Source: a virus. Taken from it: a stretch of DNA of 64,000 nucleotides. Positions 14,053-32,358 of this stretch are shown one piece after another. The stretch spans positions 13,901 through 77,900 of IMG/VR virus record IMGVR_UViG_3300035669_000001. One strand, 5' to 3'. Both the position numbers and the translations under genes were made by a program. How positions within the stretch are numbered: position 1 is the stretch's first letter; the number at the start of each line of letters is the position of its first letter. The notes beneath the pieces were generated by a model that saw only the letters and a program-made list of their open reading frames with translations, had not been told where the DNA came from and searched no databases.

Positions 14053-16050
14053 GTGAGTATCGACCAGTCCAACTACGCCCAGATGGTGGACGTCACCCAG
14101 GAGGGTGAGGTCAAGCAGCTGCCTGTCGGCGGGATGTTCGACGAGATGGGCGGGACCGGGCTCAAGCGCTCTGCGGGGGTCATCGACGAGGAGTTCATGC
14201 CCGCCCTCCGGGGCACCAAGGGCGTCGCGGTCTTCCGGGAGATGTCGCTCAACGACTACACCGTGGGCTCGTTGCTGTTCACGATCGAGATGCTGCTGCG
14301 CCAGATCGACTGGACGGTGACCGGGGACGACACCTCACCGGAGCAGTCAGAGGCTGTGCAGTTCGTGGAGGAGTGCATGGACGACATGTCCCACTCCTGG
14401 AACGACATGATCGCCGAGATCCTCTCGATGCTCACCTACGGGTGGGCCTGGCACGAAATCGTCTACAAGAAGCGGGTAGGGCCCTGGGAGACCGACCCCA
14501 AGAAGCGCTCCAAGTTCACCGATGGCCGGATCGGGTGGCGCAAGATGCCCATCCGGGCCCAGGAGACGCTGTTCCGGTGGATCTTCGACGTCGACGGCGG
14601 CATCAAGGGGCTCGTGCAGATCCCTCCCCCGGACTACACCCAGCGCACCTTGAGCATCGAGAAGGGCCTGCTGTTCCGCACCGGGATCCACAAGGGCAAC
14701 CCCGAGGGCCGGTCAATCCTTCGGAACGCGTACCGCCCGTGGTACTTCAAGAAGCGCCTGGAGGAGTTCGAGGCGATCGGGGTCGAGCGTGATCTTGCGG
14801 GCCTTCCATTCGCCAAGATCCCCAGCCGGCTGATGGACCCGAACGCCTCCCCTGCTGAGAAGCAGATGTACGCAGCGTTCAAGAAGCTCGTGGCCAACGT
14901 CCGGCGGGACGAGCACGAAGGGGTAGTGATTCCCAGCGACGTCGACGCCGAATCCAAGGCCCCCAAGTACGACTTCCAGCTCCTCGCCTCCGGGGGCAGC
15001 CGCACCTTCGACACCAACGCGCTGATCGGCCGCTACGAGCTGGCCATCCTCTCGACCGTTCTGGCCGACTTCCTCAAGCTGGGTCACGAGGGTCAGGGCT
15101 CCTACGCCATGCACGTGGACAAGACCGGCATCTTCCGGGCTGCTCTCAACACCATAGCCACTGCCATCGCCGACGTCTTCAACCGCTACGCGATCCCGAG
15201 GCTGTTCGCGGCCAACTCCTGGAAGCTGGACAAGCTCCCCAAGATCGAGCCCTCCAACGTCGACCCGCCCAACCTGGCCGAGCTGGGCCAGTTCATGACG
15301 TCCATGGCGGGCCTGGGGATGACCTTCTTCCCCGACCCCGACCTCGAGAAGTACCTGCGTGACACCGCGCACCTCCCCGCCCTCTCAGAGGAGCAGGAGG
15401 AGATGCACCGGATGATGAGCGAGCAGGCCAACGCGATGGAGTTCATGGGGGCCAAGCAGAAGGCCGAGATGGTGGGCCAGGGGATGACCCCCGAACAGGC
15501 CCAGATGCAGTCGGAGATGCCCACCCCGGAGATGCAGGCCCAGGATCCCCAGGCCCAGGCGACCAACCAGAAGATGCAGATGGACCAGGCGGCCTCTGAG
15601 CAGAAGATGGCCCAGGAGGCACAGTCCCACTCACTGCAGCAGGCCACCCAGGCCCAGGGGCTGGAGCAGGCCACCAAGGAGACCGACCTCAAGGCCAAGC
15701 AGGGCGAGGCCGAGCTGGCGACCGAGATGAAGCGGATGCAGATGGAGCTCGACGCCATGAAGGCCAAGATGGGCCTGGAGGCAGAGGGTTCCAAGCAGAC
15801 CCTGGACGCCAAGGCCAAGGGCTCCGCGCTCGACCTCAAGGCCAAGGAGGCGAGCACCAAGGCCGACCTGGACGCCAAGAGGCGGGGCAACGTGATCGAC
15901 CTGAAGGCCAAGCAGGCCCAGGCGAAGCTGCGTCCACAGCCGGCCGCAGGAAGGTCCAAGGGACGCGGAAGGGTGAGCAAGAACGGCAATCTCGGGCCTT
16001 CCAACGGCTGGGGCTGGCCGAACGATGACAACCCGTTCCGTAGGTCCTGA
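14053..16050 (+). CDS. Portal protein with Gln/Ala/Met-rich coiled-coil C-terminal extension
   Basis: Mu gp29/DUF935-type portal features (YGWAWHEIVY, GNPEGRSILRNAYRPWYFKK, IGVERDLAGLP) and position before the head genes. Confidence 0.88.
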   Translation: MSIDQSNYAQMVDVTQEGEVKQLPVGGMFDEMGGTGLKRSAGVIDEEFMPALRGTKGVAVFREMSLNDYTVGSLLFTIEMLLRQIDWTVTGDDTSPEQSEAVQFVEECMDDMSHSWNDMIAEILSMLTYGWAWHEIVYKKRVGPWETDPKKRSKFTDGRIGWRKMPIRAQETLFRWIFDVDGGIKGLVQIPPPDYTQRTLSIEKGLLFRTGIHKGNPEGRSILRNAYRPWYFKKRLEEFEAIGVERDLAGLPFAKIPSRLMDPNASPAEKQMYAAFKKLVANVRRDEHEGVVIPSDVDAESKAPKYDFQLLASGGSRTFDTNALIGRYELAILSTVLADFLKLGHEGQGSYAMHVDKTGIFRAALNTIATAIADVFNRYAIPRLFAANSWKLDKLPKIEPSNVDPPNLAELGQFMTSMAGLGMTFFPDPDLEKYLRDTAHLPALSEEQEEMHRMMSEQANAMEFMGAKQKAEMVGQGMTPEQAQMQSEMPTPEMQAQDPQAQATNQKMQMDQAASEQKMAQEAQSHSLQQATQAQGLEQATKETDLKAKQGEAELATEMKRMQMELDAMKAKMGLEAEGSKQTLDAKAKGSALDLKAKEASTKADLDAKRRGNVIDLKAKQAQAKLRPQPAAGRSKGRGRVSKNGNLGPSNGWGWPNDDNPFRRS

Positions 16051-19000
16051 TGCCCTGGGAGCGCACCGGCAGCGGCTACAAGACCGCCAAGGGCGGCTTC
16101 GTCCGTAATCCTGGTCAGTACGAGACCCTTAGGTCCAAGGGGATGTCCAAGAGACGTGCGGCCATGATCTCCAACTCGGTGGGCAAGTCCTACATCGGCG
16201 GCAAGTTCGTCCGGGCGGTGGACCTGACCGCCGAGCAGCGCAAGGTCCTGGGCGCAGGCAAGTACATCCTTTACCGCGGCCGCAACAAGCATGTCAGCAG
16301 AGGTCTTGAGAGGTTCGGACCGAACAACCAATGGAGGCAGTCTCGAGGAGCCAGCGGCAACCGGGGCACCCACCTCAACGAGTACAGGGCAGGGTGGAGC
16401 GCTACCAAGAACGTCGTCGCAGCGCCAGGGAACATGGGTGGTGCTCGCCGGAACAAGCAGGCGTACCGCCGGCTTGAGCAGGTCAACGGGGAGACCAACA
16501 CCGCTGCCTTCACCATCCGTACCGGGTCCAAGAGCACAGGCAAGTCCCACGTCTTCTACAACCGGAAGCGGATGCAGGAGGCCGAGAGTCATAAGCCCGG
16601 CTACCTGGCTGCCGTAGCTCCACACGAGCACGCCCATGCCGCTCCCAAGAGGTCCGGCTACCGGCTCTTCCAGGTCATCCAGGACCCTGCCACGCTGGGA
16701 CGCGAGGAGGCCAGGGCGGACTTCATCGCCTCAGGTGGGAAGCCGGTCAGGGGGCTGAAACGCACGTCCTTCTACGCCCACAACGCCCTGCGGGATCGAC
16801 AGGCGTCCAAGTACAAGTACGTGAAGGACGTCGGGGGCAAGCAGGGCGAGTTCGGTGCGTCCTACATCGCGCACACCCGGATGCTGCACAACAAGATCAG
16901 CAAGCCAAAGAAGGTGTCCAAGGCGTTCGGCGGGGTCAAGCGGGTGGCAGGAGCCTTCGCCAGGAAGCCCACAGCAGAGGCCGCGACCTTCGTGGACAAC
17001 CGGGTGGCTCAGGTTGCTCCCGGGATCACCAGGGCCGCTGCACCGCCGAAGAACGCCACCCAGTCACTGGTCAGCGACACGTTGGCCCACATCAACCGGG
17101 TCAAGGCCAGCCCTCCTGCTGCTGTCCCCTTCGCCCCGCACAAGCCCAAGACCATCGGGTCACTGGGGGCCGAGTGGCATCCCAAGCCACAGGCAGCCGC
17201 TGCGTCCGGGGCTCTCAGCTTCAAGGGCCACAAGGCGCCTCCGCTGACCAAGCCCGCACCAGCGAAGGCAAAGCCTGTTCAGGCACCCCCACCCGCTGCT
17301 CCTCGGCTCTCCCGTGTTGGTGCCCAGCGGAGCAGGTCGGGGTTCCAGGGGTTCACCCGGAGGCCCAGGGTTGTTCCTGCGGCCCCCAGTGCCCCTCCCA
17401 GGGCCGCTCCTGCAGTCACCAGGCCACCTAGTGCCCAGCCGGTGAGCACACCGACCCAGGCTCCGCGTGGCAACGGCCGGCGCAACGCCGGCATTGCAGC
17501 AGCCGGTGCAGGTGCGGTAGGTCTTACCGGAGCAGCGGTCTACTCGAGGAGGAAAAAGGTGGACGGCGTATCAAAGGCGTTCTCCCTACGCGGGGTCGCC
17601 CCGCGCCGGATGGGGGTCAACGTCGGCCAGCATGCCGGTGTGAACACACCACGCAGGGCCGGTGGCTTGTCGAGCATGTTCCAGCGGGGCAGTGCGCCGA
17701 AGCGCGCCATGCAGGCAGGCTCGCGGGAGATGGGTGTCGCTGCCAGCCCTCGTCGGCTGATGGGTCCAGGTGCCGCCCCAGGTGGCGGCATCAACCCCCG
17801 CGGGACTGGACGCCCTGCCAGTGCTGTGGGCCGTCCAGGACTGGCTGCTGCTCCCTCGGTGGCCGCCGGTGGTCCTGCCGCGGCCGCACCCAAGGTGGGA
17901 GGCATCGCCCGTCCGGTCGGTTCCGGCAGCAGGCCGGCGCCGAAGACCGGCGGGATGGCCCGGCCCTACGCCCCGGTGCCCAAGCCTCCGGTGACCACTC
18001 CCAAGCTGCCAGGGGCTGCTGCAGCGCGTCCGTACGCGCCTGTCCCTGTCGCTCCGAGGACCAGCAACCGGAACCGTAACCTTGCCCTGGGAGCAGGCGC
18101 TGTGGGTGCTGGCGGGCTCGGCATGGCCGGTGGTGCTCTCGGGCAGCGCAAGGTCCGCAAGTCCTTCTCGCCCAACCAGGCACGAGACGAAAGGGGCAGG
18201 TTCATGCCCATGGTGCAGATGCTCCAGGTCAACGACTTCGAGCAGACCGAGGACAACGTCGAGAAGAAGTTCGACCGGACCGACAAGATCATCGCCGGAC
18301 TGTCAGCAGTCGGGTTGGCCGGTGCCGGGGCTGCCGCCTACAAGGGCAACAAGGAGGCCAAGCGTCTGGGTGGCACGAAGGGACTCACCACCAAGGAGAA
18401 GATCTTCGGTGTCCGGGGCAAGGTTGCCCAGTGGGCCGGTACCGAGAAGCCCAAAGGTTGGAAGCCCTCGGACCGGGTGCACAAGTCTCTGCGGGTCACA
18501 GGGGCACGTCGGCTCCCGGGGTACAAGCCACATCCTGACGACGTGGAGGAAGCGGTCGCCCTGGCACGCAAGCAGTTCCCCGGTCGCAAGACGACCAAGA
18601 AGGAGGTCCTGGAGGAGCTTCAACCCTCTGGTGGTCTGGGTGGTGTAGCAGGTAGGGGCTTCGGGGCAAGGTCGAACCGCATCTCCAAGGGCTCTCCCGA
18701 CATGGCCGACGTCCACATCGAGGGTGTGCTGCGTCCGGTCGGCAAGATGCGTCGTGCCCGGGTGGAGAAGGGCATGGTCGTGGTGGGCAAGGCCGACGAG
18801 CCCCGCAAGCCCGGCCAGTGGAACGCCAACCAGCGTGCTGGCGCTGCTGGACTGGTGAGCACGTTGGCCGGTGGTGCCATTCCCCTCGGGGTAGGGATCG
18901 GCGCTGGCAGTGCTGCGCGCAAGGGCAAGCGGTTCAAGACCGGCGGCAACGCCTTCGTCCGCACCGGCGCGGAGGGCGGCGTCGGGGGTGCTGTGGGAGC

Positions 19001-19139
19001 AGGTGCGGGTATGTTGACCCGCAACCGTATGGCTACGAAGATCGGCGCAGCTCTCGGTGGAGGTGTCGGGACCGTCCACGGTGCCAATCGGTCGATCGCC
19101 AACTCACGTCGCAAGGGATACCTGAGGAGCGGTTTCTAG
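16050..19139 (+). CDS. 1029-aa modular basic protein; putative protease-processed internal head polyprotein
   Basis: Modules separated by [VI]xK motifs. Contains HEHAH..EE, Gly-zipper segments, RDERGRF and PDMADVHI. Confidence 0.6.
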   Translation: MPWERTGSGYKTAKGGFVRNPGQYETLRSKGMSKRRAAMISNSVGKSYIGGKFVRAVDLTAEQRKVLGAGKYILYRGRNKHVSRGLERFGPNNQWRQSRGASGNRGTHLNEYRAGWSATKNVVAAPGNMGGARRNKQAYRRLEQVNGETNTAAFTIRTGSKSTGKSHVFYNRKRMQEAESHKPGYLAAVAPHEHAHAAPKRSGYRLFQVIQDPATLGREEARADFIASGGKPVRGLKRTSFYAHNALRDRQASKYKYVKDVGGKQGEFGASYIAHTRMLHNKISKPKKVSKAFGGVKRVAGAFARKPTAEAATFVDNRVAQVAPGITRAAAPPKNATQSLVSDTLAHINRVKASPPAAVPFAPHKPKTIGSLGAEWHPKPQAAAASGALSFKGHKAPPLTKPAPAKAKPVQAPPPAAPRLSRVGAQRSRSGFQGFTRRPRVVPAAPSAPPRAAPAVTRPPSAQPVSTPTQAPRGNGRRNAGIAAAGAGAVGLTGAAVYSRRKKVDGVSKAFSLRGVAPRRMGVNVGQHAGVNTPRRAGGLSSMFQRGSAPKRAMQAGSREMGVAASPRRLMGPGAAPGGGINPRGTGRPASAVGRPGLAAAPSVAAGGPAAAAPKVGGIARPVGSGSRPAPKTGGMARPYAPVPKPPVTTPKLPGAAAARPYAPVPVAPRTSNRNRNLALGAGAVGAGGLGMAGGALGQRKVRKSFSPNQARDERGRFMPMVQMLQVNDFEQTEDNVEKKFDRTDKIIAGLSAVGLAGAGAAAYKGNKEAKRLGGTKGLTTKEKIFGVRGKVAQWAGTEKPKGWKPSDRVHKSLRVTGARRLPGYKPHPDDVEEAVALARKQFPGRKTTKKEVLEELQPSGGLGGVAGRGFGARSNRISKGSPDMADVHIEGVLRPVGKMRRARVEKGMVVVGKADEPRKPGQWNANQRAGAAGLVSTLAGGAIPLGVGIGAGSAARKGKRFKTGGNAFVRTGAEGGVGGAVGAGAGMLTRNRMATKIGAALGGGVGTVHGANRSIANSRRKGYLRSGF

Positions 19140-19142
19140 GCC

Positions 19143-21221
19143 ATGACCCAGCCCAAGGTCGTGATCCACGGGAAGTTCGAGGACGGAGACCTCCCCGCCC
19201 AGGGGACGCTGACGTTCTCCGACTTCGCCTTCTCCACCGACACGGTGGAGAACGTCATCCACGTCCCCCACACGGAGAAGGCCTACCTCGACCAGAACGG
19301 TGAGTTCTGGGTGGAGCTGCCCCTGAACGTGGGCATCAACTCCACCCCCACGCCCCGCCGGTACTCCGTGGACATCGCCGTCTCGGGGTTCGCCGACTCC
19401 TGGGAGTTCGTGCTCGACCCGACTTCCCTGCAGGTCGAGCTCTCCTCCCTGATGCCGGTCAACGCCCCGCCGGTGATCCCCTACCAGTACGTCTCCTCGC
19501 TGATGGGCATGACGGGCCCGATCACCTACTCCGACTTCATTGAGCGCGTCCCACAGCTGGCCCCGGACGCCGGCAAGAGCGCCTACGAGCTCTGGGTGGA
19601 CCAGGGCAACACCGGGTCGTTCTCCGACTTCCTGGACGACATCTCAGGCCCTCCTGGGATCATGGGGCCGCGCGGTGCCCAGGGAGACATAGGCACCGAG
19701 GGCCCACGGGGGCTGAGAGGCCCGGCTGGACCCCAGGGCAGGCCCTTCCACCTCGACGCCATCGTGATGACCGAGTCGGCTCTCAGTGGCGGTGGAGGGG
19801 TGCTCACCGACGACGAGCAGACCGTCCTGATGCCCAAGTGGAGCATCGTCGCCGTCTTGGAGAACCAGTCCTTCTACCACTTCGACGGGGTCGAGTGGCG
19901 CAACCTCGGCTCCTACAAGGGCGCGCAGGGGGAGCCGGGCAACACCCCGACCGCGGCCGACCTCGGGCTCGGGACCTTCGTGGGCCTCACCCCGGCCACG
20001 ATGCCCATCCCCGGCTCGGTGCAGATCGCCCTGAACACCCTGGCGGCCAACGTGGGCCAGGTGCAGAGTGTCAACGGCCAGGTCGGTGAGGTGGAGATCG
20101 GCGCGGACGACGTGGGTCTCGGCAACGTCGCCAACCTGGCTCCCTCCCAGATGCCCGTCTCGGCCGACACCCAGGCGGCCCTGAACGCCCTGAGCGTCCT
20201 GCTGGGGGGCAAGGAGCCCCTGCTGCCCTCGGGCGGCACGGTGACCACCTTCCTGCGCGGGGACAAGTCCTGGCGCACCCTGATCCCCGCTGACGTGGGT
20301 CTGGGGCAGGTGCGGAACTTCGCCTCGATGAACGTGCTGGGCTCGGTGAGCCTGGACGCCGTGACCTCCACCGGCACCTACCACCAGCCCTTTGACACGG
20401 TCGCCTCCACCGACCTGGGCTACCCGGTGAACAGGGCGGGCTTCCTGGTGGTGGTGGCCAACAACGACGGCACCAAGATGGTCGCCCAGAGCTACACCAC
20501 CTACGGCTACGCGGGGTCGGAGTCCCGGGTCTATCTGCGCGCGATCTACGCCACCAACTCCTGGGGCCCCTGGCGGCAGGTCTACACCTCATCGGGTGCT
20601 GACCCCTTCACGGCGCAGTCCTACCGGGGCACCTCGGGTGGAGGGGTGTCAGCCTCCGGTGTGGTGCATGCGCGGTCCTTCGTGGCCAGTGCGGGCATCT
20701 CGGCTTTTGACCTGGACTCCGCAGCAGGGGTGACGGTGTCCTACCCGCTGGCCCCGGTGGTCGGCACCCTGCCGGACGCCTTCCCACAGGGGTACTCGGT
20801 CTGGCGCCTGCAGGCCGGTGCAGCCGGCAGCCCCACCGGCTACCCGGTTCTCTCGGGCACACTGGAGAGCTACCGCAACACCTTCTACCCCAGGCAGCGC
20901 CTCACAGCAGTCGACGGCACGGTCTACACCAGGACCTTCTCGGGAACCTGGTCGCCCTGGAAGGTCAGCGACAACCTCCAGTTCCTGGCCGGTCAGGTGG
21001 CCATCCTGCCCTCTGCCATCGACGTCCCCACCTCGGTGGTGGTCAACCTTCCGGCTGGGAGGTTCAGCGTCCCGCCTGTTACCGTCGTCTCGGCCAACTC
21101 CTCGGTGCCCGACCGGATCCACGTCAGCACCCAGCTCGCCACGGTGGACTCCTTCACCGTCACCATGACCCGGTCGTCCGTGGCCAACACCTTCATCAAC
21201 TGGCTGGCCGTAGGAGTCTGA
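19143..21221 (+). CDS. Fibre / receptor-binding protein (short collagen, pyocin-knob-like domains, C-terminal H-lectin/gp53-like domain)
   Basis: Gly-X-Y stretch, VQSVNGQVG and DVGLGNV repeats, YxR...WGPW knob motifs twice, and ends INWLAVG. Confidence 0.75.
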   Translation: MTQPKVVIHGKFEDGDLPAQGTLTFSDFAFSTDTVENVIHVPHTEKAYLDQNGEFWVELPLNVGINSTPTPRRYSVDIAVSGFADSWEFVLDPTSLQVELSSLMPVNAPPVIPYQYVSSLMGMTGPITYSDFIERVPQLAPDAGKSAYELWVDQGNTGSFSDFLDDISGPPGIMGPRGAQGDIGTEGPRGLRGPAGPQGRPFHLDAIVMTESALSGGGGVLTDDEQTVLMPKWSIVAVLENQSFYHFDGVEWRNLGSYKGAQGEPGNTPTAADLGLGTFVGLTPATMPIPGSVQIALNTLAANVGQVQSVNGQVGEVEIGADDVGLGNVANLAPSQMPVSADTQAALNALSVLLGGKEPLLPSGGTVTTFLRGDKSWRTLIPADVGLGQVRNFASMNVLGSVSLDAVTSTGTYHQPFDTVASTDLGYPVNRAGFLVVVANNDGTKMVAQSYTTYGYAGSESRVYLRAIYATNSWGPWRQVYTSSGADPFTAQSYRGTSGGGVSASGVVHARSFVASAGISAFDLDSAAGVTVSYPLAPVVGTLPDAFPQGYSVWRLQAGAAGSPTGYPVLSGTLESYRNTFYPRQRLTAVDGTVYTRTFSGTWSPWKVSDNLQFLAGQVAILPSAIDVPTSVVVNLPAGRFSVPPVTVVSANSSVPDRIHVSTQLATVDSFTVTMTRSSVANTFINWLAVGV

Positions 21222-22654: not shown

Positions 22655-25438
22655 ATGGCGTTCAACGAACACTGCGCTCAGCGCGTCTACGACATCGTCT
22701 CCAAGATGGACGACGACGAGGCCCAGATGTTCGGCCTCCTGGTGGCCCACGACGTGTGGTCGCGTGACGTCCGGGCCAACGAGCGGTACCTCCGCCGGCT
22801 GAAGGACTCCTACGATGCCGAGGTCACGGACACGGTTGCCAAGGCCCTCCTCGAGCACCTGGACGAGGGCGGCGACCCTGAGGCTGCTGTGGCGGTCGCA
22901 GCGGCTGTGGCAGTCGCGAAGGACGACGACGACTGGTGGAAGTTCCAGGAGCGCGACAAGCAGGGTCGCTTCGGCCGGATGACCGGTGCCCAGTACCGGG
23001 CCAACCTGAAGGCGATCAAGGCCAGTGCCAAGCTGACCCAGGCTGAGCGCAAGGCGCAGCTGAAGGACGCCAGGTCCGGACGGGCCAACTACCTCAGCGG
23101 CTCGGGGCTCTACGTCGACGTCAAGGGAGGCGGTCAGGGAGTCGTCCGAGGTACCCAGAGGTTCGAGCAGGACTGGAACCGCCCACCGGACGAGGAGTCC
23201 AACGCCACCACCACCTTCAACCGGCTGAAGACCGGCGGCCAGACGGTGCAGGCCATCGGCGCCGCCACGGGCAGCCAGAAGCTAGCCATCGCGGGTGCGG
23301 TGGGCAACTACGCCGGTCAGTTCGGCCCGGAGGCCGAGAAGGTCGTCGGGCCCTCCATCCGGCGGACCGCCTACCGCTACCGGGGGACAGAGCGTCGTCC
23401 CGACGCTGCCTACGTGCAGATCGCCCAGGCCAACCTCAACGAGGTCAAGCGTGAGGGGCAGCCGGTCACTGCGGAGCAGAAAGCCTTCGCGGCCGAGACC
23501 GCGGCGATCCGGTACTTCCTCGGTGACGACCCGACGGCTGGCAAGCGGGGCGGTGGCTCACGCATCCCCAGTGCGAAGCTCTCCGGGCTGCACCGCGCCT
23601 CGGGCCGGATCACCCCCTCCGAGGGCATCATGATCGACGCCAACGGCAACATCGCCCACCAGGCGGTCGGCTACGGCGAGGACCACTACCTGCCCTTCAA
23701 CCTCAAGAACCTCTCCGCGCTCAAGGGCGGCTCCTACATCCGGACGCGCGAGAGCGGCGGTCTGACCACCGAGGACATCTACACCGGTCTGGTGGCCGGT
23801 GCGCGCTCGATGACGGTGGTGAGCAACTCCGGGGTCTTCACAGTGGACTACGCCGACGACCTGCGCGGAGGCAGGCGCTACAACGACAAGGCCCGGCAGA
23901 TGGTCAGCCGCTACGGCCAGACCCTGGACGCGATCCAGTCCGAGAAGGTGGCCAACCCGGAGCGCGGCCTGTCCTCGCGGGAGAGGGCGAAGATCCAGGT
24001 CGAGACCGAGCAGAAGATCAACGAGGACCCGATCCTGCGGTCCTTCCCCGACGACCAGAAGAAGTCCTGGGTCAAGGAGGCGATCCAGCGCGCCGAGTCC
24101 ACCACCCAGCTGTCCGAGGACGAGATCGCCGAGATCGACCGGAAGTCCAAGGAGCAGGGCAAGACCAAGTCCGACCAGGACATCTTGTTCCGTCAGCTGT
24201 ACGACGAGAAGATCGACGCGGTCAGCCGCCGGCACTACCGGTTGGACGGTGAGGGTTACGCCACCTCGATGGAGGCGCTGCGCGAGCAGTTCCCCTACTA
24301 CATCTCCAACATCAGCTACCGCACGGTCAAGAGCAACGACTCGCTGGCTCCCGACAGGTTCAACCGGGCCACCGACAAGGGCTACGTCAAGCCGCGGTTC
24401 AACCGGCCCGAGGGAGCCCAGTCGGGCTACTACGACGACACCATCACCGGCAGGGGCAAGACCAGCGCCGACCGGACGGACTACCAGAACTGGCGGGTCC
24501 GGGCCAAGCGCGGGGGAGATGTTGCGGCTGTTGCGGATGTTGCGGCAACCACGGGTGCCCCCAACAGCATGAAGGCCACCCAGGACAAGTTCGCGGCCGA
24601 GGCCAAGGAGAAGGCCGGCGACCCGTTGATGAACAACGCCATCATCTCCGACGCCGACTCCCTCAAGGCCACCCACGAGGCCTCCCGCGAGGCCAAGGCC
24701 GGTGGCATCGGGATGCAGTACGAGGGTGTGCACGAGTGGTTCAACGCCGACGACTCCGAGCGGCACGCCATCATGGCCGACCCGGCCCGCAGGGCGAAGC
24801 TCAAGGCCGACATCACCAAGGTGAAGCGGGACTACGCCAAGGAGTTCGGTTCCTCCGCGCCGCAGAACATCGAGTTTGCCGAGAAGAAGGCGAAGACCGC
24901 CATGATGAGCGACGAGGTCCTCGCGGCCGAGAAGGCCCCGGACACCCCGCTGCGGATCACCGACGAGCAGTTCGAGCAGGCGGCTCAGACCGACCACATC
25001 CGCAACCTCACCCAGCAGGAGGACCACGACCTGCAGGCGATCAGCCAGGACCTGCGTACCCAGCGCGCCCTCACGGCGAAGGCGGGCAACGACAAGGAGA
25101 CCACGTCGCTCACCCAGCAGATCACCGCGCTGGAGTACGCCCGCGCCCTCAAGGCCCGCACCACCGAGGTGCCGACCGACGTCTACGCCGAGATCGCCCA
25201 GCGCACCAGCCCGACCAAGGGCACGCTCACCCCGGTGCCGAAGGTCTCGTCGAGGGCCACGCTCACGTCCACCCAGGCCACTGAGCAGGTCCGCCGGCTG
25301 CACAACCAGCACCGGCTCGGGCTGATCGACGCCAACGAGTTCGAGCGGAGCGTCAGAGAGGTCATCGAGGACTCCGACATGGACGATAACGAGAAGCAGG
25401 TTGAGTACCGCCGTGCTACCGGGAACATCATGCGGTGA
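22655..25438 (+). CDS. 927-aa putative internal head protein with a degenerate JAB/MPN-like domain
   Basis: N-terminal VxK sites, RDKQGRF, and EGIMIDANG...LKGGSYIRTRESGGLTTEDI. Confidence 0.55.
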   Translation: MAFNEHCAQRVYDIVSKMDDDEAQMFGLLVAHDVWSRDVRANERYLRRLKDSYDAEVTDTVAKALLEHLDEGGDPEAAVAVAAAVAVAKDDDDWWKFQERDKQGRFGRMTGAQYRANLKAIKASAKLTQAERKAQLKDARSGRANYLSGSGLYVDVKGGGQGVVRGTQRFEQDWNRPPDEESNATTTFNRLKTGGQTVQAIGAATGSQKLAIAGAVGNYAGQFGPEAEKVVGPSIRRTAYRYRGTERRPDAAYVQIAQANLNEVKREGQPVTAEQKAFAAETAAIRYFLGDDPTAGKRGGGSRIPSAKLSGLHRASGRITPSEGIMIDANGNIAHQAVGYGEDHYLPFNLKNLSALKGGSYIRTRESGGLTTEDIYTGLVAGARSMTVVSNSGVFTVDYADDLRGGRRYNDKARQMVSRYGQTLDAIQSEKVANPERGLSSRERAKIQVETEQKINEDPILRSFPDDQKKSWVKEAIQRAESTTQLSEDEIAEIDRKSKEQGKTKSDQDILFRQLYDEKIDAVSRRHYRLDGEGYATSMEALREQFPYYISNISYRTVKSNDSLAPDRFNRATDKGYVKPRFNRPEGAQSGYYDDTITGRGKTSADRTDYQNWRVRAKRGGDVAAVADVAATTGAPNSMKATQDKFAAEAKEKAGDPLMNNAIISDADSLKATHEASREAKAGGIGMQYEGVHEWFNADDSERHAIMADPARRAKLKADITKVKRDYAKEFGSSAPQNIEFAEKKAKTAMMSDEVLAAEKAPDTPLRITDEQFEQAAQTDHIRNLTQQEDHDLQAISQDLRTQRALTAKAGNDKETTSLTQQITALEYARALKARTTEVPTDVYAEIAQRTSPTKGTLTPVPKVSSRATLTSTQATEQVRRLHNQHRLGLIDANEFERSVREVIEDSDMDDNEKQVEYRRATGNIMR

Positions 25439-27606
25439 GCGTCCCCGCCTTTGACCAGGAGCCACTGACGCCCCAGGAGGCCTACCAGGTCGACTACGTC
25501 ATCCGAGGGGCACAGGGGGGCTCCACGCTGGCTGTGGCGGCCGCACTGGGCGGGGCCTTCCTGGTGTACCGGGCGTACATGCGGAGACGCCTGCGGGAGC
25601 GCATGGGCTCGCTGGAGGGCACCACGCCCGAGGAGGTGATGCGCGAGACCAACCAGGTGTTCTCCACCTTCATGCCCACCTGGACGGCGATGGCCGCACC
25701 TGCTCTCTTGCAGGGCTACCTGTCCGGGGTGGCCGAGACGGAGTTCGGGCTGGACGAGGCGTTCCTGTCCGAGCTGGCCGATAACTACGCCTACTCCCTC
25801 GGGATGCACATCAACCAGGTCTCCGGCGACGCTCTCGTGCGCGGGTACGCGGCCCAGGTGAACCGGAAGGTCCCGGCCAAGGTCGCCCTGGGCAACGTGA
25901 TCGACGCGGTCGGGGTGACCAACTCCCACATGCGGACTCTGAACGTGATGCTCTCGGGCAAGGAGGACGCCAAGCTCAGCGAGACCCTGATCCCCTCGGT
26001 CAAGAAGGCCAGGGCACAGCGCCAGGTGATGGCCGCCCTCAACCAGCGCGCCGAGGTGATCGGCGACTCGGAGTCCTGGAACGCCAAGCAGCAGGGCAAG
26101 CAGATCGCCTGGTTGTACGCCCAGCGTCAGGGGTTCATCCCCTCCACCGCTACCCGGGAGTGGATCACCGCCGACGACGAGCGGGTCTGCCCGTCCTGCG
26201 GCCCGCTGCACAAGGTGGAGCTGCCGGTCGCCGAGCAGTTCGACATCCCGAACGTCGGCAAGTTCTGGTCCCCGCCCGTGCACCCGAGGTGCCGCTGCGA
26301 CGTGCGTCTCAAGGTCGGCCTGGGGCAGATCATCGCCAACAACGTGGTCTTCGGGCAGTTCGGCCGGCAGTGGCTCAAGCCCGACGACGTCGAGGAGGTC
26401 GGAAAGTCCGACAACCCCCACGACAACGACTGGGACACCCAGCCGAGACAGAAGACCGGCAGGTTCGGCGCGCGTCCTGAGGTTCGTTTCAAGGAGGCTG
26501 ACGTCGACCTCGATGCGGCCATCGCCCAGGCCACCCAGGCGGCGCAGATCGAGGACGCGGTACCCAAGGGTCCGATCCTCGGGCGAACGGTGCTGGGAAA
26601 GCCAGGGGTGATAGGCGAGACGACACTGGGCAAGCCTCCGGTGCTCGGCCAGGTCGTCCTCGGCAAGCCTCCTGTCCTCGGCGGGTCCAAGCTCGAGTCG
26701 CAGGGTCTGCAGGCCCAGCGGATGAAGTCTCACGCCCTGCAGGGCCGCAAGCTGGACAAGAGCAAGCTGGACCATGCCAGGCGGATGGCCCGGGCCGAGA
26801 TGGACGGCCGGATCATGGCACTGCCCGGGGACATCTCGGGCACGGTGGTGGACGACGAGGTCAAGGCACCCGAACCCGACTACTCCGACCTGGTGCCCAC
26901 TCCGGAACCCATGTTCGCCGTTGCCGATCCGCGTTGGGTTATTCGTGGACCAAACACCGACTCGCGTTCAATCAACGCTTCCAACGGTATGTACCGGCTG
27001 GACGGAGCCGAGGTGATAGGCGGGGTGGACAAGCTCCAGGCCAAGATCGAGGAGCTCGAGGCCGAAGCTGACGACGAGTACCTGGAGTACCTCTTTGACA
27101 GTAATGAGGCGAGCTACTTCGACAACGAAACCGGTTGGGAGAGTCCCGTCCCCGAGCACGTCTACGCCGCAGCTATGGAGTGGGTTCGGGCCCAGGAACA
27201 GACAAACATGGCGGTGGCGGACTTCACGGTCGAGCTTGATGCGTACGGGCCGCTGTGGACCAAGGACGGCACGCCGGTGGAGGGAGGGTACAACCATCCT
27301 GACTACGAGGCCCTCTACGAGAACGGGGATATTGAGTTTGACCTGGTTGACAGCCAGTACGTGCAGATCTCTGACATCGCGGACAAACTGAGTCTTTGGG
27401 AGCACGTCAGCGATACTCAGCCCCGGATCATCCAGCTGGACAAGGTCAGGGGCAACGACGTCGACTACGACCCTGACGGTGCTCCTTATGCCCAGGTGAG
27501 CGATAGCTACAAGATGGACGGGATGTCCACGGTCACCATCAACGGGAGGCACTATGTGACCGCCCGACTCGAACCGGCCTGGCTGGACGAAGGCGGGAGA
27601 ATGTAG
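25435..27606 (+). CDS. MuF-like (SPP1 gp7 family) minor head protein with long C-terminal extension
   Basis: REWITADDERVCPSCGPLH...PPVHPRCRC. Confidence 0.85.
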   Translation: MSVPAFDQEPLTPQEAYQVDYVIRGAQGGSTLAVAAALGGAFLVYRAYMRRRLRERMGSLEGTTPEEVMRETNQVFSTFMPTWTAMAAPALLQGYLSGVAETEFGLDEAFLSELADNYAYSLGMHINQVSGDALVRGYAAQVNRKVPAKVALGNVIDAVGVTNSHMRTLNVMLSGKEDAKLSETLIPSVKKARAQRQVMAALNQRAEVIGDSESWNAKQQGKQIAWLYAQRQGFIPSTATREWITADDERVCPSCGPLHKVELPVAEQFDIPNVGKFWSPPVHPRCRCDVRLKVGLGQIIANNVVFGQFGRQWLKPDDVEEVGKSDNPHDNDWDTQPRQKTGRFGARPEVRFKEADVDLDAAIAQATQAAQIEDAVPKGPILGRTVLGKPGVIGETTLGKPPVLGQVVLGKPPVLGGSKLESQGLQAQRMKSHALQGRKLDKSKLDHARRMARAEMDGRIMALPGDISGTVVDDEVKAPEPDYSDLVPTPEPMFAVADPRWVIRGPNTDSRSINASNGMYRLDGAEVIGGVDKLQAKIEELEAEADDEYLEYLFDSNEASYFDNETGWESPVPEHVYAAAMEWVRAQEQTNMAVADFTVELDAYGPLWTKDGTPVEGGYNHPDYEALYENGDIEFDLVDSQYVQISDIADKLSLWEHVSDTQPRIIQLDKVRGNDVDYDPDGAPYAQVSDSYKMDGMSTVTINGRHYVTARLEPAWLDEGGRM

Positions 27607-27608
27607 CC

Positions 27609-28460
27609 ATGGACGTACTGGAGGCTCTGCGCGCGCACGGTGAGGCTGGGGCGGCTGTCGTGGACCTGCTCTACGGCGAGGGTGCGGAGGAGGTTGTCAA
27701 GGCTCTCAGTGAGGACCGCAAGCGGAAGATCGCCACCGCCTCCAACGTGGTCGGGATCGGCGCTGGGCTGGCTGCCATCCCCGGTGCCACCCGCGACTTC
27801 CGGAACGCCGCGAAGACTGCCAGGGGTGCCAGTGACAAACCGGTCGGCGTCCTGAAGCCGGTGGGCAAGATCCGGGGCAACATCCGCGGTGGTCTCAAGG
27901 CCACCAAGAACTTCCTGGGCAAGCCGAAGACCGCGCTGGCACTGGCCGGCGGCGGTCTGGCCCTGCAGGCGGGGAACGTCGGCGGGGACTTCGTGACCAA
28001 CCAGGTCCTCCGCGCCGACCAGAAGAAGTCGGGCGTCTCCAAGGGGCTGACCGACATCGAGTGGACCGGCGAGTTCTCCAAGATGGACACCGACAAGCGC
28101 CAGGTGTTCGGGTGGGCCTCGGTCACCGCGGTCGACGGCGTCCCGGTGACCGACCTCCAGGAGGACGAGATCGACCTCGAGGAGATCGAGAAGGCCGCCT
28201 ACTCCTACGTGGCCAAGTCCCGGGTCGGCGGCAACATGCACAAGAAGACCATCGACGGCTCCCCGGTGCACGTCTCCGACATGATCGAGTCCTTCGTGGT
28301 CACCCCGGAGAAGAAGCAGACGCTGCACCTGGGCAACGACACCCCGGAAGGGTGGTGGGTCGGCTTCCAGGTCAACGACGACGAGACCTGGGACGCGGCC
28401 AAGAACGGCGAGCTGGTGGGCTTCTCGATCCACGGAACGGGAAAGAGGCGTGACGGCTGA
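27609..28460 (+). CDS. XkdF-like prohead (capsid maturation) serine protease with N-terminal extension
   Basis: QVFGWASV..DLQED..EEIEKAAY..NMH..IESF..GWWVG..W...KNGELVGFSIHG. Confidence 0.85.
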   Translation: MDVLEALRAHGEAGAAVVDLLYGEGAEEVVKALSEDRKRKIATASNVVGIGAGLAAIPGATRDFRNAAKTARGASDKPVGVLKPVGKIRGNIRGGLKATKNFLGKPKTALALAGGGLALQAGNVGGDFVTNQVLRADQKKSGVSKGLTDIEWTGEFSKMDTDKRQVFGWASVTAVDGVPVTDLQEDEIDLEEIEKAAYSYVAKSRVGGNMHKKTIDGSPVHVSDMIESFVVTPEKKQTLHLGNDTPEGWWVGFQVNDDETWDAAKNGELVGFSIHGTGKRRDG

Positions 28461-29689
28461 TGCCCATGGTGAAGCTGGTGTTCGTCCCGGAGACGACGAA
28501 CAAGCCGACCAGGCAGTCCCACAACATCGTGGCGCTGCCCAAGATCGAGCCTCTGCAGGGCAAGGGGAAGCCCCAGTTCGGGCGCAACGGCAAGCCGGTC
28601 AGCAACGTCTCCGATGCGCTGTTCGGGCGCGGGGGAGGCGTCCACACCGACGTGATCCGCAAGGCCCTGAGCAGGGAGCAGAAGGTGGGCGTGGGAGCCG
28701 CCGGCGTGGTAGGTGCCGGGCTGGCAGCAGGTTCGGTCGGACGAGCGGTCAGATACGGCGGCCAGGCGCGCAACGCCTTCCGGGTGGCCCAGGGTTTTAG
28801 TCATGGCCCCGCCCACCAGGCCGGGGCCACCCTCAAGCAGTACGGCGCACATCGCAGGAAGATGGCTCTCCGCAACGTGGGTGCGGCGACAGTGGCGGGC
28901 GGGCTCCTGGCTGGCGGTACGGCCGCCACGATGTCCAGTGCCAACGCAGCGAACCAGCGCCGCACCGGTGTGGCCAAGATGAGTGACGCGGAGCTTCGCC
29001 ACCGCAAGCGCGTCCAGGCCGGGATCAGCATCGGCACCTCCACCCTCGGTCTCTCCGCGCTGGGGTCAAAGGCCGGGGCCGGTGTGCTCCGCAAGCTCAA
29101 CAAGGCCCCGGGTGCGGCCCATCGGCTGGACAAGGCAACCACCAACCTGCTCACCAGCGGTGCAGGACTGGGTGGGGTCGGTGGGTTCAACTTCGCCTCG
29201 GTGCAGCGCCAGGAGGCCAGGAAGCGGACGCCGGTGGTAAAGGCTTACGACCCCGAGCGCAACCGGGAACGCAGGGCCAGGCAGGAGGCCAAGGTGGCAG
29301 GAGTCGTCGGAGGTGCAGCGTCCGGCGGTGCGCTAGCGGCTGGAGGTCTCGCAGCACGACGTGGGTTTCAACGCCGGGACGAGACCACCCGGATAGGTAG
29401 TCCGGTGGAGCTCGAACAGGAGGTTCTCCCCGGTGGCGGCAAGACCCGACTGGACCCGAGGGGGCGAGTTCACCACGGGCCTGCTCGGAAGTTCCGGACG
29501 GCGAACTTCGGGGAGAAGATGTCCTCGGCGACCAAGGTCAAAGGGCTCAAGGCCAGCCAGGTGAGGGCGGGCAAGGTCGGTGTCGGACTGGCCGCGCTGG
29601 GCGTCGGCGGGCTGGTTGCGTCGGACCGGATCGCCTCCTACTCCCGGGGGAAGGGGCGGAAGTACTCACCCCGGTTCAAGCGGGACTGA
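28460..29689 (+). CDS. 409-aa cationic Gly-zipper protein; putative polyprotein
   Basis: Three Gly/Ala hydrophobic plus Arg/Lys modules delimited by IRK|A, VAK|M and VVK|A. Confidence 0.55.
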   Translation: MPMVKLVFVPETTNKPTRQSHNIVALPKIEPLQGKGKPQFGRNGKPVSNVSDALFGRGGGVHTDVIRKALSREQKVGVGAAGVVGAGLAAGSVGRAVRYGGQARNAFRVAQGFSHGPAHQAGATLKQYGAHRRKMALRNVGAATVAGGLLAGGTAATMSSANAANQRRTGVAKMSDAELRHRKRVQAGISIGTSTLGLSALGSKAGAGVLRKLNKAPGAAHRLDKATTNLLTSGAGLGGVGGFNFASVQRQEARKRTPVVKAYDPERNRERRARQEAKVAGVVGGAASGGALAAGGLAARRGFQRRDETTRIGSPVELEQEVLPGGGKTRLDPRGRVHHGPARKFRTANFGEKMSSATKVKGLKASQVRAGKVGVGLAALGVGGLVASDRIASYSRGKGRKYSPRFKRD

Positions 29690-29727
29690 ACGGGTTGCAG
29701 GCTAAGACAGAATTGTGGGTGAGGAAC

Positions 29728-30906
29728 ATGCCAAAGCTCAGTGATCTGAACATCGACGAGGTCAGCCTCGTGCGCAAGGGCGCCAACCAACATGCCCGGG
29801 TGGCAATCGCGAAGTCAGCAGGAGGAGAAGTGGACGAGGAGTACTTCGACCAGGAAGGAAACGCGGTCGACGTCGAGGAGCTCGAGCATGGCGACATCGT
29901 CTTCGACTCTGACGGTGAGGCCTACCAGTACGACGAGCCTGGTGACGATGACGACGAGGTCGAGAAGGCCCTGTACGTCGGTGGCCGCGAGGTCACCAGC
30001 CGGGTCGGACGTGCCGCTGGCAAGGCGTACATCGGAGCCGGCCGCAAGGCCAAGTCCGCCAACAAGTTCCGGATCCAGACAGGTGCGATTGCCGGGCAGG
30101 CAGCCCGCAGGGGCGCCAAGCGTGTATCCAGCGCTGCCGGTACGGGTGCCGGGTTCGTCGCCGGCAACGCCAAGCGTGGTGCAGGGGCAGTGGCGGGAGC
30201 CGCACGTAGCACCGGCACGGCAGCCGGGAACGCGGGCAACGCCATGGGCGGGGCGATCCGCGGGGCCGCGGCGCAGACCGAGGGCTTCCTGCGCACCGAG
30301 AACAACGCCTTCAACACCCGCGGCCGGATCGGCGCCCTCGGTGCCGGTGGTGTGCTCGCCGGTGCCGGTGGCGGCTACGCGGCAGGCAGCAACGGCCGGG
30401 TCCGCAAGAGCGCGTCCGACGACCTCCGGGAGGAGCTCTCCAAGGCACTCACCGACGACGACCGGGACGAGGTGATCGCGAAGGCCTTCGGGTACGTCGA
30501 ACAGGCCGAGCAGGTCGCCCAGGAGGCCTGGGAGATCGCCGAGGAGGAGCGGGAGAACCGCCGGGCTGCGGAGTTCTACGAGGTGGCCAAGTCCTACGAC
30601 ATGGTCCCGGTGGATACCGAGGACCTCGCGATCGCCATGATGCACATGGCCGACCTGCTGCCCGAGGAGGACGTGCAGGTCATCGCCAAGGCCCTGGGCT
30701 TTGCGGCCGACGTGGCCGACGAGCTCTACGAGGAGCAGGGCAACGTGGGCGGTGGCGACAACTCCGACGTGATGGAGCAGCTGCAGACGTTCGCGCGCAA
30801 CCGGGTCGCCAAGTCCGGTGAGGGCTCAGCCGAGCAGTACCTGGTCGATGCCCTCAACCATGACCCAGCGGTGTACGACCAGTACCTCGCGGACAACAGC
30901 CGCTGA
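29728..30906 (+). CDS. Scaffolding protein
   Basis: GAGGA RBS; N-terminal DEVSLVRKGAN; acidic helical body with repeated xxK|S/A; C-terminal DPAVYDQY. Lies just before the capsid genes. Confidence 0.75.
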   Translation: MPKLSDLNIDEVSLVRKGANQHARVAIAKSAGGEVDEEYFDQEGNAVDVEELEHGDIVFDSDGEAYQYDEPGDDDDEVEKALYVGGREVTSRVGRAAGKAYIGAGRKAKSANKFRIQTGAIAGQAARRGAKRVSSAAGTGAGFVAGNAKRGAGAVAGAARSTGTAAGNAGNAMGGAIRGAAAQTEGFLRTENNAFNTRGRIGALGAGGVLAGAGGGYAAGSNGRVRKSASDDLREELSKALTDDDRDEVIAKAFGYVEQAEQVAQEAWEIAEEERENRRAAEFYEVAKSYDMVPVDTEDLAIAMMHMADLLPEEDVQVIAKALGFAADVADELYEEQGNVGGGDNSDVMEQLQTFARNRVAKSGEGSAEQYLVDALNHDPAVYDQYLADNSR

Positions 30907-30929: not shown

Positions 30930-31349
30930 ATGGCTTACGACGAAGCGTGGCGGGCGGTCACTTTCAACGCTGACTCCTCGCTCGCCGGGTACACGGGTGT
31001 TCCTGGCGTGCCAGGATCAGTTAGCCCGAACTACGGCAAGGCGCTCTACAGGTTTGTGAAGGTCGTGGGCAAGCGCCTGGTGGGTCGAACCACCGGTGTT
31101 GCCGACCGCAACAAGACCGTGGGCATCTGTCAGAGCAAACCACAGGTGACCGGTGAGGCCGCTACCATCGCGATCCGGGGCGAGTCCCTGGTGTTCGCGG
31201 GCGGTGTCATCGCGGCCGGTGACATGGTCACCTCAGACGCCACTGGACGAGCTGTGACCACTGCGGTGGTGGCGGACCATCTTGGCCTCGCTGTCGAAGA
31301 CGCATCCGGAGCCGACGTGCTCACCACCGTGCTGCTTCGGTGCAACTGA
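30930..31349 (+). CDS. Capsid decoration/cement protein (DUF2190-like)
   Basis: AGGVIAAGDMVTSDATGRAV motif; precedes the MCP gene. Confidence 0.75.
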   Translation: MAYDEAWRAVTFNADSSLAGYTGVPGVPGSVSPNYGKALYRFVKVVGKRLVGRTTGVADRNKTVGICQSKPQVTGEAATIAIRGESLVFAGGVIAAGDMVTSDATGRAVTTAVVADHLGLAVEDASGADVLTTVLLRCN

Positions 31350-31362
31350 GAGGAGATGACCA

Positions 31363-32358
31363 ATGCCTCGTCCTGACATGGCAGATGTCCATATCAACAC
31401 CCCGCTGACCAACGTCAGCATCGCCTACATCCAGAACGCCTCCAACTTCATCGCCACCAAGGTCTTTCCCAAGCTCCCGGTGGACAAGAGGTCGGACCTG
31501 TACTGGAAGTACTCCAAGAGCGACTGGCGGCGTACCGACGTCCAGCGTCGTGCTCCCAGCACCGAGTCTCCGGGCACGGGCTGGAACACCTCGATGGACC
31601 AGTACTTCTGCCACGTCTACGCAGTGCACAAGGACATCGACGACCAGCTCCGGGCGAACGCGGACTCGGTCTTCCGGCTGGACAGCGATGCCACTGCCTT
31701 CGTGACGAACCAGATGCTCATCAAGCGCGACCTGGACTGGACCGCCTCGTTCTTCAAGACCGGGGTATGGGGCACGGACAAGGCGCTGCTGGCGACCGAT
31801 GCCAACCCGGAGAACATCCGCTGGGACCGGGCCACCTCGGACCCGATCGGTCTGTTCGGCACGCTGCAGCTCGCCTTCATCCAGCAGACGGGCTTCAAGG
31901 CCAACACCGCCGTGTGCGGTGCCAACGTCCTGAAGGCGCTGAAGAACCACCCGGCCATCATCGACCGGATCAAGTACACCCAGAAGGGCATCGTGACGAC
32001 CGACCTGATCGCCACCCTGCTCGACGTCGACCGGGTGTTCGCGGCCTACGCCACCTACTCCACCGGACCCACCATCCCTGATGCGGTGGCCCAGGACGCA
32101 GCGGCGACCAACACCTTCATCGCGGACCCCAACTCGGTGCTGTTGTGCTACTCCCCGGCCAGCCCGTCTCTGATGAGCCCGGCCGCTGGGTACACCTTCA
32201 CCTGGAAGGGCTACCTCGGAGGGAACGCGCAGGGGATCCGGATGACCCGGTTCCGCATGCCGGCCATCCGGTCGGACCGCATCGAGGCCGAGATGACCTA
32301 CGACATGCACGTGATCTCCCCGGACTGCGGTGTGTTCCTGACGAGTGTTGTCGGCTGA
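31363..32358 (+). CDS. Major capsid protein
   Basis: LTNVSIAY..FIA..VFP..V N-terminal signature of lambda gpE-like MCPs, 331 aa, strong RBS. Confidence 0.9.
   Translation: MPRPDMADVHINTPLTNVSIAYIQNASNFIATKVFPKLPVDKRSDLYWKYSKSDWRRTDVQRRAPSTESPGTGWNTSMDQYFCHVYAVHKDIDDQLRANADSVFRLDSDATAFVTNQMLIKRDLDWTASFFKTGVWGTDKALLATDANPENIRWDRATSDPIGLFGTLQLAFIQQTGFKANTAVCGANVLKALKNHPAIIDRIKYTQKGIVTTDLIATLLDVDRVFAAYATYSTGPTIPDAVAQDAAATNTFIADPNSVLLCYSPASPSLMSPAAGYTFTWKGYLGGNAQGIRMTRFRMPAIRSDRIEAEMTYDMHVISPDCGVFLTSVVG

Follow-up and report, generated by a model that had tools for sequence, protein, structure and literature searches.

Basic regions in the protease and scaffold genes

The window analysed here, a 64-kb stretch (GC content about 65%) of the 77.9-kb IMG/VR virus record IMGVR_UViG_3300035669_000001 (completeness estimate 97%), contains the head-assembly cassette of an uncultivated siphophage with a genome of about 78 kb. 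Three consecutive genes on its plus strand are considered in detail: a gene for a prohead protease of 283 amino acids (aa; 27609..28460), a gene for a stand-alone basic, Gly/Ala-rich protein of 409 aa with a net charge of +50, which we call g409 (28460..29689), and a scaffold open reading frame (ORF) of 403 aa (29695-30906). The protease and the scaffold each contain a basic block that is preceded by one V-x-K motif and ends in another. The reading that we favour, at a probability of roughly one half, is that such blocks are polycationic passengers of the prohead core, excisable by the protease.

The blocks had been placed at 27702-28043 (between VVK and VSK) and 29968-30408 (between VEK and VRK) in an initial annotation, and these coordinates and residues were found to be exact. 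The protease begins with a conserved acidic leader of 31 aa (27609..27701; consensus DLLYGDGAxE[VI]xK↓A, where the arrow marks the putative cut) that ends in VVK (aa 29-31; 27693-27701). The basic block follows (aa 32-145; 27702..28043; net charge +15; 32% Gly plus Ala), contains two conserved Gly/Ala hydrophobic segments and ends in VSK (aa 143-145; 28035-28043). The remainder (28044..28457) is an XkdF protease domain, as supported by a match to Pfam Peptidase_S78_2 (PF14550, XkdF) over aa 155-280 (69.2 bits versus a cutoff of 24) and by an AlphaFold2 model in which the predicted local distance difference test (pLDDT) score is about 80 in the XkdF domain and below 50 for aa 1-147. The top VIA-align match of the model was T4 gp21 (5jbl_A; Z 6.1 over 111 aa, root-mean-square deviation 4.1), a value below the Z of 8 that would be decisive, and obtained with a model pLDDT of only about 80; it was the sole match with Z of at least 5, the next being at 4.8. 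Residues S204, H211, S228 and H275 were invariant in the protease alignment A1 and are Ser/His catalytic candidates. Searches of PDB sequences with the protease alignment and with the scaffold alignment gave no match.

Comparisons of homologues bear on the nature of the basic region of the protease. The 120 close homologues are all built alike, with a leader of about 31 aa, a basic region (105-266 aa, net +10 to +39), a [VIL]xK↓[S/D/A/N] site and the XkdF domain. In the leader, L21 and G23 were invariant, with V/I at P3 in 95% and Ala at P1' in 58% of 118 homologues, and the basic region is not purely of low complexity, since G49, A52, G53, L119 and G126 were invariant in a 26-sequence alignment. 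Distant XkdF proteins, from prophage-like contigs of Firmicutes and other metagenome-assembled genomes (MAGs), are mostly 125-160 aa long, comprise only the domain without a basic block, and are encoded directly upstream of a scaffold-family gene. Their starts align 4-13 residues past the VSK↓G of the window protease, which indicates that the protease block is an added N-terminal extension and not the internal insert that had been assumed. Judged from the sequences, cargo is no likelier a role for this N-region than that of a targeting or zymogen prodomain.

The scaffold probably starts at ATG 29728 (392 aa), as suggested by an upstream Shine-Dalgarno-like sequence, GGTGAGGAA, and by the N-termini of homologues. 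Its N part (29728..29967) consists of a SLVxxGANQHA motif, a small beta-hairpin domain and an acidic tract that ends in VEK, the left site (29959-29967; aa 89-91 in the numbering of the 403-aa ORF). The insert (29968..30408; aa 92-238 in the same numbering) has 147 aa and a net charge of +20, is rich in Gly, Ala and Arg (48% Gly plus Ala) and ends in VRK, the right site (aa 236-238; 30400-30408). It is followed by a helical acidic C-terminal domain (30409..30906) with conserved [VIL]xK↓[SA] motifs at K239, K252, K288, K321 and K362 (392-aa numbering, also used below). The view of an acidic scaffold with an abrupt charge switch at both insert edges was borne out: the protein has a net charge of -26, and in 20-aa windows the charge rises from -8/-6 to +6 across the left edge and falls from +3 to -6 across the right one. 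In the AlphaFold2 model, pLDDT is about 85 at aa 36-72 and about 90 in the entirely helical C domain, and below 50 in the insert; the scaffold insert and the protease N-region are thus both predicted to be disordered beside confidently folded domains. GC content at third codon positions was highest in the annotated frame across all segments of both genes, including the two blocks (0.76-0.97), indicating that the protease gene and the scaffold gene are each one continuous reading frame.

The protein is acidic, elongated and helical, and its gene lies just upstream of the decoration and major capsid protein genes, as expected of a scaffold. No named scaffold family of Pfam or PHROG matched, and the protein is assigned as a scaffold by the place of its gene and by its properties; a Foldseek search with the model gave no match at E<=0.001. 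A complex prediction for the XkdF domain with the N-terminal 75 aa of the scaffold scored 0.28, less than the mark of 0.32, a value that speaks neither for binding nor against it.

The blocks had been described as basic Gly-zippers, and only the basic character holds for both. Small-xxx-small Gly/Ala hydrophobic segments are present in the protease block and in g409 (Kyte-Doolittle values 1.3-1.7), and no 17-aa window of the scaffold insert reaches a Kyte-Doolittle value of 1.2. Pfam Gly-zipper profiles matched neither the insert nor the protease block nor g409, even at E 5, a threshold at which Pfam gave nothing useful on any basic block. The description "Gly/Ala/Arg-rich basic" fits the scaffold insert better, and this composition looks at least as much like that of a nucleic-acid-binding, condensate-forming disordered region.

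The N-terminal motif of the scaffold, LSDLNIDEVSLVRKGANQHARVAIAK (29728-29840), also opens the scaffolds of the cultured phages RSP, Kovu and ValentiniPuff. In homologues this motif weakly matched the C-terminal end of Pfam Peptidase_S78 (positions 128-160 of 165; E 0.0025-0.037, below the cutoff), and it also matched PHROG families of head maturation proteases. The motif could be what is left of a protease-scaffold fusion, or could tether the protease.

Conservation of the boundaries and of the V-x-K motif

To define the limits of the insert, we analysed the best 120 of 157 relatives of the scaffold found by a word-indexed search; an exhaustive profile search at E<=1e-3 yielded 3119 representatives (clustered at 50% identity), and 976 of these reached E<=1e-10. 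The family has two constant parts, an N part of about 80-95 aa and a helical C domain of about 160-165 aa, with a very variable length between them. Homologues without an insert have a single site (...EREPELVGK↓SFADEVREEL...), those with a short insert have ...VGK↓(15-28 aa)PVRK↓SF..., and those with a long insert have VGK↓(60-175 aa, basic and Gly/Ala/Arg-rich)VxK↓SF... The lengths between VGK and VxK↓SF are graded, at 0, about 20, about 70 and 100-175 aa. In agreement with the boundaries first proposed, the comparison with insert-less scaffolds among the 120 homologues placed the variable region exactly between the left V-G-K and the right V-x-K. A left [VILMF]xK site was found in 120/120 (Val at P3 in 90%, Gly at P2 in 82%), and a right [VILMFA]xK no more than 8 residues from the start of the C domain in 102/120 (Val at P3 in 75%, Ser at P1' in 79%). 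The same pattern was observed in an independent set of 131 further scaffold representatives. In the pair P0002 and P0014, the flanks are 65-68% identical, and 131 aa in one versus 15 aa in the other lie exactly between both sites.

In the interiors of 52 inserts, Gly and Ala each made up 22% of the residues and Arg 11%, and the mean charge was +11. On a FastTree phylogeny of the flanks only, the long-insert state changed at least 17 times among the 120 scaffolds, versus a mean of 39 for shuffled states (a rough estimate). Such repeated changes indicate that the hinge between the N part and the C domain is a recurrent docking point. A dedicated search yielded no longer, fused scaffold forms, an outcome that carries little weight, and one 833-aa fusion surfaced in the profile search. 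In this metagenomic representative (P0365), an insert-bearing scaffold is preceded by a 460-aa basic block, which is joined to its N-terminus via ...GVSK↓RVRAL...; this is a third arrangement by which basic material is attached to the scaffold.

The motif at the boundaries is also strongly enriched in the proteins themselves. We counted [VI]xK[SAG] 8 times in the scaffold versus 0.61 expected from residue shuffles, 4 times in the protease versus 0.9, and 26 times in total versus about 7.6 in the six head ORFs at 16050-19139 and 22655-30906; the 2040-aa tape measure protein had 0 versus 2.0 expected. Across the family, the scaffold C domain contained 575 motifs versus 32.8 expected, or about 1 per 35 aa. 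Its motif positions were kept in 87-119 of the 120 homologues, with K239, K252 and K362 in 118-119. The logos of the four boundaries agree with one another (V/I at P3 in 75-95%, Lys at P1, Ser/Ala at P1'; about 120 homologues each). Counts so far above shuffled expectation, together with the conservation of the boundaries, indicate that the pattern is more than chance. At the level of sequence, these comparisons establish the architecture, its boundaries and the conservation of the motif. From conservation and enrichment we infer that [VI]xK↓[SA] may be the specificity of the XkdF protease, and cleavage at the V-x-K motif appears likely.

Basic modules and gene order in related loci

An alignment-based scan of IMG/VR retrieved 80 related loci, 40 of which were non-redundant; single-protein scans with the scaffold and with the protease had given no match in this database. 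The order protease-(basic)-scaffold-cement-major capsid protein holds in more than 70 related loci. Between the protease and scaffold genes, 35 of the 40 non-redundant loci have at least 80 aa of strongly basic ORF or a protease extended by a basic C-terminal part, and the basic material there ranged from 132 to 1400 aa and from +20 to +122 in net charge. It is fused in frame to the C-terminus of the protease in five loci (L031, L041, L049, L060 and L066). Loci L043 and L078 have no separate basic gene, and the scaffold hinge holds 345-460 aa. The proposal that cargo is fused to obligatory procapsid proteins was strengthened by the fusion types that recur in relatives, namely protease C-terminal fusions, the 460-aa basic block at the scaffold N-terminus and the hinge inserts of 345-460 aa; it is weaker for the protease of the window, the N-region being present in all close homologues. 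As judged from these gene comparisons, the basic modules are recurrent and mobile.

In the window, the protease stop codon (28458-28460) overlaps the ATG of g409 (28460-28462) by one base, which suggests translational coupling, and in several relatives the two genes form one ORF. No Pfam or PHROG match was found for g409, and an ESM Atlas search with it returned only unnamed viral clusters, with scores up to 0.85. Pairwise BLAST among the basic blocks of the window detected no significant similarity. A hidden Markov model of the protease leader and first Gly/Ala segment did not match g409, and matched basic proteins of other loci weakly (best E 0.007/0.001). By eye, g409 aa 52-100 (DALFGRGGGVHTDVIRK followed by ALSREQKVGVGAAGVVGAG; 28592-28774) resembled the protease stretch DLLYGEGAEEVVK followed by ALSEDRKRKIATASNVVGIGAG (27636-27818), that is, aa 17-66 with the leader and the first Gly/Ala segment; this candidate was rejected at a BLAST E value of 22.

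DNA and protein searches of cultured phages gave no protease or scaffold match save two XkdF-domain matches. Cultured phages with a related major capsid protein (about 42% identity) are Pseudomonas RSP/KPP23, Arthrobacter Kovu and Microbacterium ValentiniPuff; their scaffolds have the same N-terminal motif without a basic insert, and no basic gene is present. A scan of genome contigs matched only MAG-binned contigs from many phyla, from which no reliable host call could be made. Two IMG/VR contigs of 135,953 and 105,652 bases (L053/L059 and L055/L062) contain the head cassette twice, 67.4-68.5 kb apart; the underlying genomes, of about 67-68 kb, were probably assembled as concatemers.

The other genes of the head module, all on the plus strand, flank this region on both sides. 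Upstream are a Mu-type portal (Portal_Mu; 14053-16050), a 1029-aa unknown protein (16050-19139) with a DUF7218 match at its N-terminus only, a 692-aa collagen/fibre-like protein with collagen repeats (19143-21221), a 927-aa unknown protein (22655-25438) and a MuF-like protein (25435-27606). Downstream are a head decoration/cement protein (30930..31349; Pfam Phage_cement_2, E 8e-7) and a lambda gpE-like major capsid protein (31363..32358; phrog_1005, E 1.6e-82; Pfam Phage_cap_E), the N-terminus of which contains no [VI]xK[SA] site. A role of the 1029-aa protein as the portal was ruled out by the Portal_Mu match upstream of it. Four Gly/Ala hydrophobic segments lie in the C-terminal half of this protein, which contains 8 [VI]xK[SAG] motifs in all versus 2.6 expected and is a further candidate for a processed internal protein. 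The collagen-repeat gene resembles those of tail fibres and lies amid the head module, between the genes for the 1029-aa and 927-aa proteins, an unusual site for a fibre gene; its product could be a head fibre.

Proposed processing, alternatives and known systems

In the mechanism that we propose, the XkdF protease would cut after the Lys of [V/I]-x-K when S or A comes next. The acidic helical scaffold, with a motif every 12-40 residues, would be reduced to small acidic peptides, which would then exit the procapsid. Its hinge site, VGK↓SF in minimal homologues, would have been opened in this phage by a cassette consisting of the 147-aa polycationic disordered block and its terminal VRK, and cutting at both ends of the insert would yield one large basic polypeptide per scaffold copy. 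In the protease, the order leader-VVK↓basic region-VSK↓catalytic domain would make self-release possible. Passengers would enter the procapsid because they are part of obligatory proteins, by covalent linkage, or because they are drawn to such proteins electrostatically; loading of the stand-alone basic proteins would probably be helped by charge attraction to the acidic scaffold. Since there is a site at each end and few inside, the blocks would be excised as large units, and their release as discrete large fragments seems probable, if less so than the cleavage itself. That they stay with the DNA, whether as counter-ion or as ejected protein, is speculative, and we would sooner doubt than expect it.

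Several observations weigh against excisable passengers. The insert interiors (4792 aa in the 52 inserts) are only mildly depleted of [VI]xK[SAG] (4 versus 7.9 expected), the protease N-blocks are not depleted (90 versus 85), and the stand-alone basic proteins are enriched in the motif (131 versus 72; median fragment 126 aa). The conserved [VIL]xK[SA] motifs at K252 and K321 lie inside predicted helices and could be structural instead of cut sites, and the protease N-region is conserved in the manner of a functional prodomain. The length of the scaffold insert and the stand-alone basic coding space compensate each other only weakly (rho -0.29, p 0.07). The basic blocks are alike in composition without significant sequence similarity, so a single cargo family is unsupported, and no cultured phage with this protease or scaffold was found in the DNA and protein searches.

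Part of this evidence also bears on the alternatives. It is rather doubtful that the blocks serve assembly alone, as electrostatic glue or as a targeting or zymogen prodomain instead of cargo, in which case they would bind the acidic scaffold, build the core, recruit the protease and perhaps keep it inactive, and would then be cut out and expelled or degraded. The strong acidity of the scaffold on either side of the hinge in all homologues, with an insert or without, is consistent with such a role, as is the occurrence of the protease N-region, with its invariant residues, in all close homologues. Known prohead proteases have propeptides that are thought to target the core, such as the C-terminal propeptide of SPN3US gp245 (PMC7411985), and most T4 core protein fragments leave the head (PMC9958956). 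However, the scaffold insert is dispensable (68 of the 120 homologues lack a long one) and varies extremely in length, which is odd for an element critical to assembly. Released polycationic pieces of 100-150 aa would also be the least likely to exit a shell filling with DNA, unlike the acidic parts, in which a site occurs every 12-40 aa. Tolerated drift, in which a permissive hinge linker expanded neutrally in Gly, Ala and Arg in a high-GC genome and V-x-K is structural and uncut, is very improbable. It would account for blocks that are predicted to be disordered, belong to no Pfam family and share no detectable homology, for the V-x-K motifs inside helices and, as high GC favours Gly, Ala and Arg codons, for the composition of the insert (GC content at second codon positions 0.69). 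But a neutral linker would neither hold V-x-K↓S at both ends in nearly all homologues nor yield uniformly cationic blocks (+5 to +21) within an acidic protein. Moreover, no DNA tandem repeats were found beneath the blocks, the short repeats there being motif codons (for example GTGGCCAAGTCC for VAKS, 3 times), and the same sequence type is maintained as separate genes in 35 of the 40 loci.

The released basic peptides might instead exit with the DNA, insert in the host membrane and aid genome entry or depolarise the cell, an explanation that we consider improbable. Ejection proteins are among the known contents of phage heads (PMC7697877, PMC7290940). The protease N-block, g409 and the 1029-aa ORF contain segments with Kyte-Doolittle values of 1.2-1.8 and small-xxx-small patterns flanked by Arg/Lys, and the insert of one homologue (P0042) gave a sub-threshold match to Pfam Gly-zipper_YMGG (17.8 bits versus a cutoff of 28.9). 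The scaffold insert of the window lacks such segments and Gly-zipper matches, as described above, and all loops are strongly basic, unlike those of polytopic membrane proteins. Siphophages usually pass the membrane by means of the tape measure protein, and this phage has its own, of 2040 aa. A bolder form of the passenger reading is that this large, wholly uncultivated lineage uses the scaffold as a stoichiometric delivery vehicle, so that each genome would be delivered together with a protamine-like or membrane-active peptide in hundreds of copies. In that case, [polycationic peptide]-VxK cassettes at the hinge cleavage site, or on the protease or other head proteins, would be excised by XkdF and held by the packaged DNA, and the passengers would form a new class of siphophage internal proteins and a natural counterpart to the engineered P22 scaffold-cargo fusions; we regard this as unlikely.

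Returning to excisable passengers of the prohead core, comparable arrangements are known in which a passenger is joined to the scaffold. In herpesvirus UL26/UL26.5, lambda C/Nu3 and P2 gpO, a scaffold-joined passenger enters the procapsid and is freed by cleavage at flanking sites. The passenger in this phage is likewise covalently on the scaffold and bounded by conserved, putative release sites, but it is a non-enzymatic polycationic block and the protease is a separate gene, whereas in those systems the passenger is the protease. MuF-fused polymorphic toxins of temperate phages (PMC5576092) are also variable passengers on an obligatory head protein and hence packaged; they are C-terminal folded toxin domains at low copy, whereas those described here are internal low-complexity sequences with a putative cut site on either side. 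Engineered fusions of cargo to the P22 scaffold (PMC9962691) do by design what this scaffold appears to do naturally, although they are artificial and have no release sites.

The prohead proteases of T4, phiKZ and SPN3US cut after the Glu of a short x-X-E motif, which is S/A/G-X-E in phiKZ and A-X-E in SPN3US; their substrates are core and internal proteins (PMC5694885, PMC7411985, PMC9958956). T4 gp21 degrades gp22, gp67 and gp68 and trims internal proteins, which are left in the head for ejection (PMC9958956, PMC7411985, PMC5694885); among these, IPI-III and Alt are abundant and have capsid targeting sequences. The system described here resembles the T4 core (gp21; gp22/gp67/gp68; IPI-III, Alt) in the putative fold class of the protease (best match 5jbl), the short motif and the predicted conversion of the scaffold into peptides. 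It differs in that Lys and not Glu is at P1, in that the enzyme is XkdF/S78_2 and not of the gp21 family by sequence, and in that the passenger lies within the scaffold between two sites or at the N-terminus of the protease, in contrast to the short removable N-terminal targeting sequence of T4. On either side of the scaffold block lie flanks, of 80 aa and 165 aa, although the protease does have its 31-aa leader ending in VVK. The major capsid protein is lambda-E-like with no obvious propeptide. In phiKZ and SPN3US, many head proteins are similarly cut at one motif, long propeptides may target the core, and the protease removes its own extension (PMC5694885, PMC7411985). However, their motif is A/S/G-X-E, and the propeptide is discarded and the folded protein kept, whereas here the disordered basic block would be the part that is kept, and the folded scaffold the carrier that is discarded. 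What would set this phage apart from T4-like processed head cores is a putative Lys-specific motif for an XkdF-type enzyme and cassettes placed exactly at the predicted scaffold cleavage site.

If the passengers are processed as proposed, [VI]xK↓[SA] would be the first substrate motif to be assigned to prohead proteases of the XkdF class, which is widespread and uncharacterised. Insertion into the scaffold would be a natural form of cargo loading, at about the copy number of the scaffold and with no dedicated targeting peptide, and this excisable-cassette design could be directly copied for capsid nanotechnology. The heads of a common soil phage lineage, represented by the 976 scaffold clusters, would contain much polycationic protein, which bears on how capsids manage the charge of DNA and on which other components siphophages inject along with it.

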